Shown: in pieces, positions 47,361 through 60,460 of the stretch
Position numbering within the stretch: the stretch's first letter is position 1
Layout of the letters: every line of letters starts with the position of its first letter
DNA from: Candidatus Enterousia sp.
GTDB taxonomy: Bacteria; Pseudomonadota; Alphaproteobacteria; Rs-D84
Reading direction: 5' to 3'
DNA length: 64,000 nt
NCBI GenBank assembly: GCA_045645065.1
Contig: JAZRIB010000012.1
Location: 5,282 to 69,281, forward strand
Translations under genes and position numbers: made by a program
Notes under the pieces: model-generated
Told to the model about the DNA's origin: nothing
What the model saw: only the letters and a program-made list of their open reading frames with translations
Databases searched by the model: none

Positions 47361-47389
47361 TTGACTTTGATGTGAAAATATGATATACT
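47361..47389 (+). promoter_or_regulatory. Strong extended -10 promoter at the head of the phage-like cluster
   Basis: TTGACT, 17-nt spacer, TGaTATACT. Confidence 0.6.
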
Positions 47390-47415
47390 GATGCACATCA
47401 ACAGCAGAAATGATA

Positions 47416-47484
47416 TCCACAACGAAGGTTGGGGATTTTTTTTGTCTGTTTTTTTACCCGTACAATTTTTGTGCGGGTTTTTTA
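47416..47484 (+). terminator. Two tandem intrinsic terminators inside the leader of the phage-like cluster
   Basis: TCCACAAC-gaag-GTTGGGGA plus T8 (47416-43), and ACCCGTAC-aattttt-GTGCGGGT plus T6 (47456-84). Both lie between the promoter and the first ATG. Confidence 0.55.
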
Positions 47485-47518
47485 TTTATCAAAAATCTAA
47501 ATGGGGGGATTGTCAGAA

Positions 47519-47929
47519 ATGAAATTACAACTGATAAAAAATCCGGACGAAACAAAAAAATTATCATATCAAATTGCACGTGTTGTCTATGCAGAAACAT
47601 CTGCGTCATCACTGCCCGCGGTCGAAGCAATGGTATCAATGATAAAAAACGCATCGCGTGCCACCGGGGTAAATATTGCACAAATAATATCTGATACCGA
47701 TATGTTTGAATCATTAAATGATACATCAATGCGTCATGAAATGTTGTCGGTCCCCCCATCAGATCGTGGTTTTCAAATGTGCCTGCGTGTTGTGTCGCGT
47801 ATGTTGGCGGGCGGGTTGCCGGATATGTGCCGTGGTGCGACACGTTTTCATCATGGTGACATATTACCAGATTGGGCGCGTACACGCGGCTATATACTAG
47901 ATATTGATGAATTATTATTTTACTTGTAA
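47519..47929 (+). CDS. Cell wall hydrolase (SleB/Hydrolase_2-like)
   Basis: IARVVYAETSA..AMVSMIKN..RGATRFHHGDILPDWA..LLFY pattern. Confidence 0.65.
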   Translation: MKLQLIKNPDETKKLSYQIARVVYAETSASSLPAVEAMVSMIKNASRATGVNIAQIISDTDMFESLNDTSMRHEMLSVPPSDRGFQMCLRVVSRMLAGGLPDMCRGATRFHHGDILPDWARTRGYILDIDELLFYL

Positions 47930-47944
47930 TGGAATAAATTAAAT

Positions 47945-48142
47945 ATGAACAAATTTTTTAATGGTGGATTCCTGAACGGTTATCGCACATACATTATGTC
48001 TGGCGTTGGAATATTATCTGCGATTGCAGCATATATTGTCGGGGATACAGATATATTTATAATGTTGCAAAATATTTTTACACTGGGTGGAATTTACTTC
48101 TTACGCAAATCAAATGAACCAAAGGAAAAAACAAATGGATAA
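47945..48142 (+). CDS. Small membrane protein (holin-like by position)
   Basis: 65 aa, two hydrophobic segments, charged C-terminus. Sits next to the hydrolase. Confidence 0.4.
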   Translation: MNKFFNGGFLNGYRTYIMSGVGILSAIAAYIVGDTDIFIMLQNIFTLGGIYFLRKSNEPKEKTNG

Positions 48143-48791
48143 AATTCCAGAAAAATTTTTGAATGACGATGGAACGTTAAACGCAACTGCGCTATTAAAA
48201 TCATATTCTGAATTAGAAAAAAAGATTGGCACAATGATAACCGTACCAACAGATGACAGTGATGAAAATGTTCGCACACGTTTTAATCGCGCAATTGGTG
48301 TACCGCAATCAGCGAATGAATATCCAACAAATGAATTGTTTGATGATGAAAATCTAAAAAATAAATTTCACGAAATTGGATTAACAACACACCAAGTTGA
48401 AAAAATTTATTCTATTGCAAATGAAATTCTTGCGCCTGTGATATCAGAATTATATGCAATGCAAAATGAAAAAAACGCAATCACAGAATTAAAAAAATTT
48501 TTTGGTGACAATGAAAAAATGAATGATGCGTTGCGTGCCATTGAAGCGTTTGGTAAACAATATTTACCAGTCGATGCGTTTGATGAATTGTGTTCCTCGC
48601 CCCAGGGAATCCAAGGTGTTTATCGAATGATGCAATCAATGGAACCAAATGTTGAAACAGAAAAAAATGAAATAAAAAATTTATCAGATTCTGATTTGCG
48701 ACGTATGATGCGTGACCCAAAATATTGGCGTGATGGTGATACAGAATACATTCGCAAAATAGAAAATGGATTTAAAAAATTATATTCATAA
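48135..48791 (+). CDS. Capsid scaffolding/assembly protein (T7 gp9-like)
   Basis: Start moved to MDKIPEKFLNDDG. C-terminal LRRMMRDPKYWRDGDTEYIRKIENGF parallels the T7 gp9 tail MIKAMSDPRYRTDANYRRQVEQKV (recalled). Confidence 0.7.
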   Translation: MDKIPEKFLNDDGTLNATALLKSYSELEKKIGTMITVPTDDSDENVRTRFNRAIGVPQSANEYPTNELFDDENLKNKFHEIGLTTHQVEKIYSIANEILAPVISELYAMQNEKNAITELKKFFGDNEKMNDALRAIEAFGKQYLPVDAFDELCSSPQGIQGVYRMMQSMEPNVETEKNEIKNLSDSDLRRMMRDPKYWRDGDTEYIRKIENGFKKLYS

Positions 48792-48895
48792 GAAAAAATA
48801 TCACTTTCTTCTTTACTATTTTTTGATATTCATATAAAATACACAGTAAGAACAAAACAGATTTGTTCTATTTAAAAAATAGAAAGGAGAGGAAT

Positions 48896-57872: not shown

Positions 57873-58712
57873 ATGGTATATGAAAAAAATGCTTTTTCAA
57901 TGCCTTTTTTATCGGGATATAAATTGCTGAAAATTCCGATTGTTAGCGCCGATGGCACACCCGCATGGCCTGAACTTTTTCCGATTGCCAAGATTAATCA
58001 GATGCGTCAAATTGTGGGCCCCAGACATTTTTCAGCACAAATGATGCTGGAATTTGTGCCGACTGAACGTATACGACTGGACCCGGGGCAAATACACTTT
58101 TACGAAGATGTACTGGATATCCATAACGTGCGCCTGGGGACGCATTTGATAACGGGCGCGTCTGTATATTGGGATCCGTCCAGTGGTCGTCGCAAATCAG
58201 ACCACAGCGTATGTGTTTTGATATATCGCGATGATAAAAATCACAATGTCTTTATCCACGATGTAATGTATATGACGGTTGCGGATAATGAAACGCATCC
58301 ATTGAATACCCAATGTGAAATGGTTATCGAATTTATGCACCGATACGGTATGCGCCGAATAGCCATTGAAACAAACGGATTGGGGAATGCGTTGCCAGAA
58401 ATTATGTGTGATACCGCGGCGCGTTGTGGTCAAAACATCTATGTAAATAAAATTACAAATAATAAAAACAAGTCCGACCGAATTTTAGATGCGATTGAAC
58501 CATTATTGACATCGGGGCATCTGTATGCGCATACGCGTGTGCAATACACGCCATTACTGTCTGAAATGTTAGGCTGGTCGCCGGTGGGCGGGGTGGGGCA
58601 CGATGACGGTCTGGATGCGGTGGCGGGCGCAATAAGCACAACACCAATTGTAATTCATCGTGCGGGTGCGGGCGTTCGCCCAATATACGCAAATACGAAT
58701 TTCAAGATTTAA
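57873..58712 (+). pseudogene. Terminase large subunit, C-terminal half (linker + RNase H-like nuclease)
   Basis: ..YEKNAFSMPFLSGYKLLKIPIV..WPELFP..FSAQMMLEFVP..VYWDPSSGRRKSDHSV..IETNGLG..HDDGLDA parallels T7 gp19 from LYKELEDNRGYTTIIWPA onward (recalled). No RBS before any internal ATG. Confidence 0.8.
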
Positions 58713-58743
58713 CACAATCAAACAACAACCAAAAGGATAAAAA

Positions 58744-59973
58744 ATGCAATCAAACCTGCAACAATTATATAAACGTGCGCTGGATATGCGTGAACCGTGG
58801 TTGCGCCGCTGGTCGGATGCGCGTAAATATACAATGCCTGAAACAGACGAAGATATGGCAAACCTGTTTGACGCAACAGCATCCGATGCGGCCGATAATC
58901 TGGCGGCGTCACTGTACACGTTATTAACGCCCCCAGAATCATTGTGGCTGACCCTGGTGCCGGAAAGTGATTTATCACCCGATGCAAATTCTGCAACAAA
59001 TGCATTGCGTGCAAATTTGAATGATTCTAATTTTTATACAACCGTACACCAGTGTTATTTAGATTTGGTAACATTGGGGACGGCGTGCCTGTTTATGTCT
59101 GAAAATCCGATTGGCGCAGCGTCTGCTTTTTCATTCACATCGATTCCGATGTCAGATATTGCAATTTTACCAAACGCGGTATTCCATACAACATCAATGC
59201 CATTGTCCGACGCGGTTAAAAAGTATCCAACATGGTGCATGCCAAAAAATCTGCGTGACGCATTGGCGGAAAACCCAGATATGCCAATAAAATTGGTACA
59301 AAGTCTGGTTGGTACGGAATTTACAGCATGGTTGGATGCTGGTGGCGACATAGAAAACAATATTGTCGCAACAGGTACATTTGAAACGAATCCATATTTG
59401 ATATTCCGTTGGTCGGTATTGTCTGGCGAAATCTATGGGCGGGGGCCGATTTTGCGTGCATTGCCAGATATTAAAACTGCAAACAAAGTGGTTGAATTAG
59501 TTCTGAAAAACGCGACTATTTCAGTATCTGGTATCTGGATGGCGGACGATGACGGTGTAATTAATTTGAATAACATCAACCTAACCCCGGGCGCGATTAT
59601 TCCTAAGGCGGTTGGTTCATCGGGTCTGACCCCATTGACCAGTGGTGCAAACTTTGACGTATCCCAGATTATATTAAAAGATTTGCGCGAACGTATTCGT
59701 CACGCATTACTGGCAGACAGACTGGGGTTATTATCCGAAAAAGAAATGACCGCCACCGAAATTATGGCGCGTAACAGTGATATGATGCGAATTTTGGGTG
59801 CGACATACGGACGTTTACTGCACGAATTTATACGTCCATTGTGTGAACGTGGTCTGCAAATCTTGGGGCGTCGCGGTGTGATTGAACCGATTACATTGAA
59901 CGGGGATGCAGAATTAAAATATATCGCGCCAATTGCCCAAATGGTTGCAATGGAAAGTGTTATGGGGGTATAA
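58744..59973 (+). CDS. Portal / head-to-tail connector protein (T7 gp8-like)
   Basis: LYKRALDMREPWLRRWSDARKYTMP..ADNLAASLYTLLTPPESLWLTL and C-terminal MTATEIMARNSDMMRILGATYGRLLHEFIRPL parallel T7 gp8 blocks (recalled). Confidence 0.8.
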   Translation: MQSNLQQLYKRALDMREPWLRRWSDARKYTMPETDEDMANLFDATASDAADNLAASLYTLLTPPESLWLTLVPESDLSPDANSATNALRANLNDSNFYTTVHQCYLDLVTLGTACLFMSENPIGAASAFSFTSIPMSDIAILPNAVFHTTSMPLSDAVKKYPTWCMPKNLRDALAENPDMPIKLVQSLVGTEFTAWLDAGGDIENNIVATGTFETNPYLIFRWSVLSGEIYGRGPILRALPDIKTANKVVELVLKNATISVSGIWMADDDGVINLNNINLTPGAIIPKAVGSSGLTPLTSGANFDVSQIILKDLRERIRHALLADRLGLLSEKEMTATEIMARNSDMMRILGATYGRLLHEFIRPLCERGLQILGRRGVIEPITLNGDAELKYIAPIAQMVAMESVMGV

Positions 59974-59976
59974 AAA

Positions 59977-60171
59977 ATGGCGGATAATATCGAGCGCGAT
60001 TTTGCACGTACGTTTTGCACCCCATCTGGTGCGCGGGTGCTGGCGCATTTGCGTAAAATAACGATTGAACGTGTGCTGGGGGCTAATGCAACAGATGCGG
60101 TATTACGCGGGTTGGAAGCCCAGCGGTCGTTAATCCATCAAATTGAAAATTTAACAAAGCGGGGGAAATAG
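59977..60171 (+). CDS. Small phage protein, Bbp19-like (tentative)
   Basis: FARTFCTPSGARVLAHLRKIT..LEAQRSLIHQIENL resembles the Bbp19-like phage domain from memory. Confidence 0.35.
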   Translation: MADNIERDFARTFCTPSGARVLAHLRKITIERVLGANATDAVLRGLEAQRSLIHQIENLTKRGK

Positions 60172-60173
60172 CC

Positions 60174-60431
60174 ATGACAACGCAACCCAGTGCCGCGGGG
60201 CTTCTGGATTTTTTACGCGACAGTTGGTTTTTAATCGCCTTTATTGCGGGTGTAATCTACTGGGTTGCGCGCCAAGATTCATCTCTGGCGGAAATCCAGC
60301 GTGCTGATGCGCGCATAACATCACTTGAAAATCGTACAACGGTCTTGGAAACGGGAATAGGGCAGATTCAAATAAAAATAGACGATATCAAAGAAGACCT
60401 GAACCTTATCAAAAGCGCCGTTATAAAGTGA
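60174..60431 (+). CDS. Membrane-anchored coiled-coil protein
   Basis: One TM segment (WFLIAFIAGVIYWV) followed by a heptad-rich tail. Confidence 0.4.
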   Translation: MTTQPSAAGLLDFLRDSWFLIAFIAGVIYWVARQDSSLAEIQRADARITSLENRTTVLETGIGQIQIKIDDIKEDLNLIKSAVIK

Positions 60432-60436
60432 AAAAA

Positions 60437-60460
60437 TCCCCTGCTTGTACCAGTAGGGGA
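60437..60460. terminator. Hairpin between convergent genes (T-run only in the minus sense)
   Basis: TCCCCTGCT-tgtacc-AGTAGGGGA preceded by A6. Confidence 0.5.

Follow-up and report, generated by a model that had tools for sequence, protein, structure and literature searches.

Only a handful of independent domestications have given rise to the known gene transfer agents (GTAs), and most of these are siphovirus-like. The GTAs of Rhodobacter (RcGTA) and Caulobacter (CcGTA) are encoded in alphaproteobacterial hosts by phage-derived head, tail and packaging clusters that lack replication and integration genes, are inherited vertically under purifying selection and depend on lysis for release; the RcGTA type is siphovirus-like, with an HK97-type capsid, a tape measure, a long tail, a P22-like large terminase subunit (TerL) and a T=3 head of ~4 kb. 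BaGTA of Bartonella, likewise domesticated independently in Alphaproteobacteria, is chimeric and linked to a run-off replication origin. To date, the only claim of a GTA-like element of podovirus-like type concerns the gut bacterium Faecalibacterium prausnitzii (FpGTA, 2026), a member of the Firmicutes, in which two loci carry baseplate and receptor-binding genes and packaging was shown experimentally (PMC12946183). Here, we analyzed 64,000 nucleotides (nt) of DNA from Candidatus Enterousia sp. (GCA_045645065.1, JAZRIB010000012.1, positions 5,282-69,281 of the forward strand), hereafter the window, in which T7-like plus-strand genes fill 47.5-60.4 kb. We consider this locus to be, probably, an ancient, chromosomally fixed and domesticated remnant of a T7/BPP-1-like podovirus, apparently selected for the production of DNA-filled, short-tailed particles together with lysis, that is, a GTA-like 'viriform'.

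Genes were called from a listing of open reading frames (ORFs) and from Pfam, PHROG, NCBIfam and PDB searches of the window proteins. The T7-like genes encode scaffold, capsid, adaptor, nozzle, a fibre stub, TerL, portal, endolysin and a holin-like protein, and the conserved block extends from ~45.5 to 60.4 kb, its left part adding a small RNA (sRNA), an 81-amino-acid (aa) helix-turn-helix (HTH) protein (h81), a winged-helix protein and birA (Table 1). An earlier note on this DNA had proposed a T7-like gene list and order, which the Pfam, PHROG and PDB assignments confirmed; its statement that known GTAs derive from siphovirus-like ancestors is outdated in view of the podovirus-like FpGTA (PMC12946183). 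Every structural match was of the T7/BPP-1 type (PF19821, PF12236, PF05396, PF17212, PF03906, 8ck1), and no HK97-type capsid, prohead protease, tape measure or siphovirus tail family was found. In contrast to the RcGTA type, all structural genes are T7/BPP-1-like and the terminase is encoded in two pieces. Compared with FpGTA, the element is alphaproteobacterial and T7-like, has a split TerL and is known from its genes alone. As the note had also stated, there was no RNA polymerase, replication module, integrase, attachment (att) repeat or tRNA in or beside the cluster, and the closest tRNA was at least 31 kb away; the run-off replication module of BaGTA has no counterpart in the cluster either. 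Early and middle genes, gp14-16-type core proteins and a full fibre were found neither at 45.5-60.4 kb nor within the 10-kb flanks in relatives, and the fibre is reduced to its N-terminal domain (PF03906), as had been described. In GC content, the cluster resembles the chromosome around it.

More than 4,600 relatives of the portal were detected, of which the best 120 were 82-100% identical and all lay on long contigs of uncultured Alphaproteobacteria. When each GTDB species was represented by a single genome, 191 species proved to have the portal; the conservation counts below refer to the best 80 of these 191, with fewer loci for individual genes (71-80). The 80 are Candidatus Enterousia or unnamed metagenome-assembled genomes (MAGs) of gut Alphaproteobacteria from ruminants, humans, mice and birds. 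Candidatus Enterousia belongs to the order Rs-D84 and has genomes mostly smaller than 1 Mb, without a tricarboxylic acid cycle or respiratory chain (PMC12306168). When the species were searched with all window proteins by tblastn, one architecture was found in 80 of 80: capsid, 77-aa protein, adaptor, nozzle, 115-aa protein, fibre stub where present, the N-terminal TerL piece (TerN), the oppositely oriented u218, xre and dnaB genes, the C-terminal TerL piece (TerC), portal, Bbp19 and an 85-aa protein. The identical arrangement occurred in 36 IMG/VR fragments, which that database classes as viral. The left side, read from loci fetched around the endolysin, was equally fixed (81-aa HTH protein, winged-helix protein, birA, endolysin, holin-like protein, scaffold, H1-like protein, capsid). 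Outside the block the neighbours vary, with rpsD on the right only in the five closest species and bamA, rseP or others elsewhere, and with recG/lrgAB or priA/lpxI on the left. The bracketing by birA and rpsD that the earlier note described is correct as an adjacency, but birA lies inside the conserved block, where it is the left neighbour of the endolysin gene in every locus reaching that far, and rpsD is a neighbour in the closest relatives only.

With trimmed queries, the ORFs of the particle genes were intact in nearly all loci (~95% or more of the species): capsid in 68 of 71, TerN in 73 of 74, and TerC and portal each in 79 of 80. Among the capsid exceptions, L019 carries a single internal stop and the match in L072 is limited to residues 98-275; the TerC exception (L018) is a truncation at a contig end, and that of the portal (L021) is again a single internal stop. 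The stops in L019 and L021 may be MAG errors. The ratio of nonsynonymous to synonymous substitution rates (dN/dS, pairwise Nei-Gojobori) ranged from 0.07 to 0.25 over all 15 genes, values which are only approximate because dS is near saturation (~1.2-1.35); it was 0.07-0.08 for capsid, the 77-aa ORF, portal and dnaB, 0.19 for TerC, and reached its maximum (0.25) in Bbp19. Median identities were 85% for capsid, 81% for portal and 81% for DnaB, so that conservation of the particle genes is close to that of the essential helicase. The Walker A, Walker B (DDxE) and C-motif (GTP) of TerN were invariant in 74 species, and the three acidic nuclease motifs of TerC in 80. In addition, distances of particle genes correlated with those of dnaB, a host marker physically linked to the cluster (rho = 0.63-0.86). 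The fibre stub is dispensable: 17 of 71 species lack it cleanly, through eight or more independent losses in separate groups. These results indicate that every cluster gene is under purifying selection and that the cluster is inherited chromosomally with its host throughout Candidatus Enterousia.

A slowly decaying, ordinary defective prophage, one of three options between which the earlier note did not choose, would account for the absence of most phage functions, for an internal deletion in one locus (L046, described below) and for the single stops in the capsid of L019 and the portal of L021. However, all 80 species keep the cluster in genomes streamlined to less than 1 Mb, its dN/dS is far below 1, and its catalytic motifs and regulatory leader are conserved. 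Simple decay is ruled out because the ORFs are intact, dN/dS is low, the motifs are invariant and the distances track those of dnaB, all in a lineage that has lost most of its genome; this explanation is effectively refuted, and we give it the least credit of all. The comparison of synteny and dN/dS across relatives that the note had called for favours domestication, and its alternative expectation, that relatives would be complete prophages or accumulate frameshifts and stops, came out the other way, as all 80 had the minimal architecture and their ORFs were, with the few exceptions above, intact.

In the ancestral phage order, found in the nearest free-phage-like sequences, namely the Pelagibacter phage EXVC031P (Hodr, OQ414635) and the contigs L123 and L129 (capsid 60% identical, GC 51%), portal and Bbp19 precede scaffold, capsid, adaptor, nozzle, core and fibre; against this canonical order, the cluster was rightly described as a circularly permuted T7 arrangement with the portal behind the terminase. 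Hodr has homologues of the portal, Bbp19, scaffold, capsid, small head protein, adaptor and nozzle genes and of the fibre N-domain, and their relative order is unchanged. It differs in its size (~34 kb), its early and replication genes, its core proteins of 159, 783 and 1247 aa and its full fibre, whereas the Enterousia element lacks core proteins, full fibre and early genes and has the portal module moved behind the terminase. The terminase gene of Hodr gave no match to TerN or TerC, and the intact one-piece terminases that align with them come from other T7-like phages. A homologue of h81 (62% identity) is present on L123, and the 77-aa gene comes after the capsid gene also in L123, L129 and Hodr; its product is perhaps a decoration or cement protein. 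The 115-aa basic protein has a homologue 3' of the nozzle in L123 and, judged from this position and a weak profile match, is probably a small internal virion protein. The gene of the H1-like protein, between scaffold and capsid, is absent from Hodr; the protein (119-157 aa) has equal place and composition in L086 (11380-11739) and L088 (8208-8681), and may serve to condense DNA or be an internal component of the head.

We searched 1.8 billion cluster representatives with TerC and read the context of five deeper lineages at six loci (L130, L131, L133, L134 and the overlapping L135/L136). The search returned many full-length terminases and more than 12 stand-alone proteins of 262-300 aa, 34-47% identical, which align from their first residues to the identical split point. 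All five deeper lineages are chromosomal, with a GC content of 26-41%. Their TerN-TerC break falls at the identical residue, with no dnaB in between; TerN ends in ...GTPH(T/A/V)xxTIYxx-stop, and TerC starts just ahead of FLxG(Y/F)xxLKIP. In L130 (GC 37%), a 490-nt non-coding spacer separates TerN from TerC. L131 (GC 37%) has endolysin, holin-like protein, scaffold and capsid, and further on TerN, 270 nt, TerC, ABC-F, amiC and ruvB, with ftsZ beyond. L133 (GC 26.5%) has TerN, 550 nt, TerC, four ORFs, ftsZ, portal, Bbp19 and mipZ; L134 (GC 29%) has TerN, a spacer with a methyltransferase-like gene, TerC and murJ, followed at some distance by ftsZ and portal. In L135/L136 (GC 41%), ftsI-murE-mraY-murD-ftsW-murG is followed by a cluster with an Mtd_N-type fibre protein, and TerN and TerC are overlapping adjacent ORFs. 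The hosts of L130-L136 appear to be alphaproteobacterial, as suggested by MipZ and a long FtsZ.

The identical split in these lineages indicates that a TerL made from two genes was the ancestral state of a much wider group of domesticated elements. On this sequence comparison, the split of TerL is older than the insertion of dnaB, and various host genes have lodged in or near the TerN-TerC junction, with the dnaB operon as the case specific to Enterousia.

In the deeper relatives, the particle genes were also seen to be interleaved with the division and cell-wall (dcw) cluster (L133 16324-20358; L134 18758-20876; L136 238-8424; L131 19160-20870), with murG directly upstream of the lysis and scaffold genes, and ftsZ directly upstream of portal-Bbp19, then mipZ. 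Two of them carry peptidoglycan hydrolase genes in the tail module, between the small head protein and nozzle genes: a GH108+PG_binding_3 hydrolase just upstream of the adaptor (L131 4231-4893) and a Peptidase_M15_3 between adaptor and nozzle (L134 4202-4678). These may be tail-associated lysins; Enterousia has none at that position.

Satellites of the capsid-forming phage-inducible chromosomal island (cf-PICI) type resemble the element in having a minimal head-and-packaging set without tail fibre functions, and a helper-dependent satellite of this kind would rely on an infecting podovirus for fibre, core and replication functions. The possession of its own capsid, portal and terminase without a full fibre or ejection proteins fits such a satellite, as does the labeling of the region as viral by the IMG/VR pipelines. 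Nevertheless, cf-PICI satellites have an integrase, att sites, a replication module and a patchy distribution, none of which applies here: no integrase, att repeats or replication/primase module were found, and an identical chromosomal block with the host genes birA and dnaB inside it is present in every species. Furthermore, its divergence follows that of the host gene dnaB, and the deeper relatives are interleaved with dcw genes and ftsZ. We therefore judge this second option of the earlier note to be very improbable. Domestication is well supported by vertical inheritance, purifying selection, the loss of all selfish functions and the entanglement with essential host genes. Chromosomal phage-derived structural and packaging genes without replication, integration and excision functions, and vertical inheritance with purifying selection on particle genes, are both features by which GTAs are recognized in the functional definition of Lang et al., and the locus shows both; the third option, a domesticated GTA-like system, was supported.

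The 3.3-kb segment at 54517-57847 (-), which had been regarded as an insertion into the cluster, proved to be the conserved host operon dnaB-xre-u218, present in every species examined, and TerL was already two genes in the older lineage. DnaB scored 605 bits against the cut-off of 540 for NF006606, the alphaproteobacterial replicative-helicase equivalog, and remained below the cut-off of the phage_DnaB model; it is therefore the host helicase, and its assignment as a phage helicase was rejected. The C-terminal domain of the XRE protein matched no Pfam family, and the possibility of an S24 peptidase was dismissed for want of a Pfam hit. Homologues of u218 numbered 1237, every one inside the clade; u218 had no Pfam, PHROG or NCBIfam match, and its AlphaFold2 (AF2) model (mean confidence score, pLDDT, 76) gave no Foldseek match in the PDB. 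As a separate observation, the double-HTH XRE protein (55211-56218, -) has a weak N-terminal match (E = 6e-8), far under the cut-off, to the Wmk male-killing family of the Wolbachia WO prophage, which likewise has two HTH domains.

TerN aligns to residues 46-210 of T7 gp19, and when TerN and TerC are concatenated, 96% of the resulting sequence aligns without interruption to intact T7-like terminases. The break lies ~10 residues past the C-motif, within the ATPase domain, so that the separately encoded TerN holds Walker A, Walker B and the C-motif, and TerC holds the last ATPase element and the nuclease. The stop codon of TerN overlaps that of u218, and the ATG of TerC overlaps that of dnaB in the palindrome CATG, an arrangement kept in 26 of the 26 loci inspected; a Shine-Dalgarno sequence (GGGAG/GGGGT) sits inside the first dnaB codons. 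An intron or ribozyme was rejected as the cause of the split (none in Rfam), as were programmed excision (no direct or inverted repeats at 54520 or 57846) and an intein (no intein-sized extensions at the TerN and TerC termini). AF2 prediction of the fused TerN+TerC from the single sequence was uninformative (pLDDT 33).

The control region of the late operon has a promoter at 47361-47389 (TTGACT-17-TATACT with an extended -10) followed by terminator 1 (47415-47443) and terminator 2 (47456-47484), both between the promoter and the first gene. The earlier note had reported a strong promoter with tandem terminators, and both are present; however, the terminators lie 3' of the promoter and belong to leader control rather than to the end of an operon. 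The -35, the extended -10, CATCAAsAG at the transcription start and both hairpins with their U-tracts are kept in 11 of 11 species, and the stem sequences differ among these species with compensatory changes. This pattern suggests that the promoter and two terminators form a leader attenuator. The promoter-then-terminator layout is that of lambdoid PR'-tR'. A further terminator lies 3' of the H1-like gene (49377-49400), and for terC, portal and the last two genes there is no promoter space except within the dnaB coding sequence.

The same layout is described for two GTAs that have been studied by experiment. Transcription of the CcGTA cluster from its promoter needs GafYZ anti-termination (PMC11150451), and the BaGTA capsid locus, set beside the present one by description, has a constitutive promoter, a leader terminator and the Q-like processive antiterminator BrrG (bioRxiv 10.1101/2024.11.20.624540). 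By analogy, we infer that a processive antiterminator may gate the operon. The winged-helix protein, a candidate regulator, and h81 are the candidate antiterminators; profiles of the two against the PDB gave nothing significant and no Q21-like hit, so that the antiterminator protein was not identified by these searches, nor was a GafA/GafYZ homologue. CcGTA has the CI/LexA-like HTH repressor RogA upstream (PMC9632790), and the Enterousia element has h81 in the upstream position.

Divergent from h81, an sRNA of ~190 nt is encoded at 45500-45694 (-). RNAalifold gave two hairpins with invariant CU-rich, anti-Shine-Dalgarno-like loops and a terminator, and the 27-nt loop 1, GACTCCCTCCTACATTCTCTCTCCTCT, was 100% identical in eight Enterousia loci and in L130. 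A homologous RNA lies between TerN and TerC in the outgroups (L130 7579-7779; spacers L131 9733-10000, L133 9451-10000, L134 8563-9041), where hairpins with long pyrimidine loops, and U-tracts, come after consensus promoters. The sRNA probably belongs to the particle system. No Rfam family was above threshold for it, the best being the alphaproteobacterial BjrC1505 (E = 0.72). Apart from its own locus, loop 1 had its best target within the window at the translation start of u218 (-23 kcal/mol), tied with a site at 10286-10330; the unusual purine tract GGAGAGAGAG at the u218 start is conserved and complementary to loop 1 (median -19 kcal/mol in 78 loci). We regard this putative pairing as a lead and not as a result.

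The retention of scaffold, capsid, portal, a terminase with intact motifs, adaptor, nozzle and lysis genes makes the production of GTA-like, DNA-filled particles the most consistent function. In the mechanism we propose, the strong, constitutive-looking promoter would fire into the two leader terminators, and in a subpopulation of cells a processive antiterminator would let RNA polymerase read the whole 13 kb. The termination-resistant polymerase would also pass the terminator at 49377-49400 and run antisense over dnaB-xre-u218 to reach terC-portal. TerN and TerC would reassemble non-covalently as a packaging motor and load host DNA into procapsids, and endolysin and holin would release the particles; release is lysis-dependent in RcGTA and CcGTA, and here it is lysis genes that are seen. 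Since no ejectosome proteins or receptor-binding fibre were found, delivery would be to the recipient surface or periplasm with uptake by host functions, or would use accessory loci elsewhere.

Several points weigh against this reading. The element is represented by genes, and particles, their host-DNA content and DNA transfer are predictions. As the earlier note had remarked of the core proteins and the small terminase, no small terminase was recognized among the cluster ORFs and no gp14-16-type ejection proteins were found in the locus; a receptor-binding domain was likewise not found there, and the fibre stub itself has repeatedly been lost. T7-type terminases are normally sequence-specific, and we know of no demonstration that a terminase split within the ATPase domain is functional. 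If the capsid is of T=7 type, as in its phage relatives, it would hold ~35-40 kb, more than the 13-15-kb locus, and the particle may then lack a classical mark of GTAs, a head with too little room for the genes that encode it. The approximate nature of the dN/dS values also has to be kept in mind. Finally, L046 is deleted from mid-capsid to mid-TerN (L046 4770-5790), retaining birA, endolysin, scaffold, the dnaB operon, TerC and portal; this is either a natural loss or an artefact of MAG assembly.

The same gaps bear on the possibility that the domesticated particle and lysis module is kept for a purpose other than gene transfer, such as programmed altruistic lysis that sets free nutrients or DNA protected by capsids, a particle acting as killer or decoy, or interference with related phages through diversion of their assembly. 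Selection and vertical inheritance are established, yet the locus lacks functions for adsorption and ejection and can do without the fibre stub; endolysin and the holin-like gene open the operon, and the head module includes a gene for an H1-like, putatively DNA-condensing protein, all of which would suit such a purpose. On the other hand, portal, adaptor, nozzle and the catalytically intact TerN and TerC are strongly constrained, which would make little sense if DNA were not packaged and held behind a functional tail. We consider a role other than gene transfer unlikely, though clearly less so than a satellite or a decaying prophage, and the locus looks like a new, independently domesticated GTA-like system rather than a dying prophage.

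A broader proposal, which we advance tentatively and with less confidence than that for the locus itself, is that these elements form an undescribed, ancient family of podovirus-derived GTA-like viriforms spread over several deep, host-associated, low-GC lineages of Alphaproteobacteria. Its defining features would be an obligatory two-subunit TerL, an antitermination-gated operon and a dedicated CU-rich sRNA, with genes interwoven with dnaB and birA in Enterousia or with murG, ftsZ and mipZ in the relatives; an operon firing antisense over dnaB would couple particle production to the shutdown of host replication. In literature on Enterousia and Rs-D84 together with phage, on split terminases and on T7-like GTAs, we found no description of the element or of phage-like genes in Enterousia. 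If the GTA-like reading is true, it adds a GTA family derived from T7-like phages and fixed across a large, uncultured, genome-reduced gut lineage of at least 191 species and its older relatives, and Alphaproteobacteria of animal and human guts may have in it a major route of gene exchange. It would also provide a natural viral packaging ATPase-nuclease that works as two polypeptides split within the ATPase domain, in which the subunit architecture of terminase motors is directly testable. The keeping of ~1.5% of a genome of less than 1 Mb as phage particle genes among dnaB, birA and ftsZ is a striking case of entrenchment in minimal genomes.

Table 1. Features of the conserved block, in window coordinates
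Feature	Position	Strand	Evidence and remarks
CU-rich sRNA gene	45500..45729	-	promoter at 45701-45729; pyrimidine loops of both hairpins invariant; terminator at ~45510-45526
h81, 81-aa Cro/CI-type HTH protein, phage-derived regulator	45905..46150	+	83-93% identity across species; weak Pfam HTH_26 match
Winged-helix protein, ~156 aa, OmpR/Trans_reg_C-like C-terminal domain	46200..46670	+	weak Trans_reg_C match; constant place between h81 and birA
birA, biotin-protein ligase, host gene	46642..47328	+	TIGR00121 at 2e-44
Late-operon control region	47361..47484	+	sigma-70-like promoter, CATCAAsAG, terminators 1 and 2
Endolysin, SleB/Hydrolase_2-like	47519..47929	+	PF07486, phrog_938; 117 clade homologues
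Holin-like 65-aa protein with two transmembrane (TM) segments	47945..48142	+	assigned by position and hydrophobicity only; place conserved; no family match
T7 gp9-like scaffolding protein	48135..48791	+	PF05396 at 4e-9
Histone H1/HC2-like Lys-Ala-Pro repeat protein, MAFSLFKK + (AKKPAAKP)n	48896..49357	+	PF07382; 42-nt repeats
Major capsid protein	49574..50401	+	PF19821 at 9e-74; 46.5% identity to Pelagibacter phage Hodr; dN/dS 0.08
77-aa head-associated protein	50440..50673	+	phrog_18004; dN/dS 0.07
gp11-like adaptor, tail tubular protein A	50743..51261	+	PF17212; phrog_394 at 3e-31
gp12-like tail nozzle, tail tubular protein B	51274..52989	+	phrog_376 at 7e-81; PDB 8ck1 'Tail Nozzle' at 9e-27
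115-aa basic helical protein	53023..53370	+	L123 homologue 3' of nozzle; weak phrog_418 'internal virion protein' match
Fibre stub, 182 aa, T7 gp17 N-terminal tail-attachment domain only	53386..53934	+	PF03906
TerN, TerL N-terminal piece	53939..54520	+	Walker A, Walker B, C-motif; dN/dS 0.11
u218, all-alpha 218-aa protein, last gene of dnaB operon	54517..55173	-	dN/dS 0.21
XRE-family regulator	55211..56218	-	HTH_3 twice and C-terminal domain; 81% median identity; dN/dS 0.09
dnaB, host replicative helicase	56291..57847	-	NF006606 equivalog
TerC, TerL C-terminal piece	57846..58712	+	end of ATPase domain and RNase-H-like nuclease; PF22530, PF17289
T7-type portal	58744..59973	+	PF12236 at 2e-82; PDB T7 portal chains; dN/dS 0.08
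Bbp19-like small protein	59977..60171	+	PF25181; also 3' of portal gene in phages
85-aa TM and coiled-coil protein, last conserved gene	60174..60431	+	in 83/84 loci; dN/dS 0.12

Between the cluster and rpsD, an 85-aa ORF (60462-60719, -) has no counterpart in related loci and no family match, and is probably strain-specific or no gene. Elsewhere in the window, a separate island unrelated to the T7-like cluster lies at 9209-15582, at a tRNA-Asn (15507-15582); it carries a DUF5906 primase-like gene (9209-11395), an AAA_21/AbiEii-like ATPase (11759-13024) and a short tyrosine integrase (13230-13814); the window has no other integrase. A stretch of low GC content (0.32-0.36) at 34000-40000 encodes, besides several small ORFs, a PG_binding_1 + GH108 lysozyme (35782-36906) and a toxin-type protein resembling Tlde1/YkuD L,D-transpeptidases (37292-37738). 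Further GH108 lysozymes were seen in L001-L004, ~10 kb downstream of the cluster, and within the cluster in L131, and the low-GC GH108 stretch may be an accessory lysin locus.

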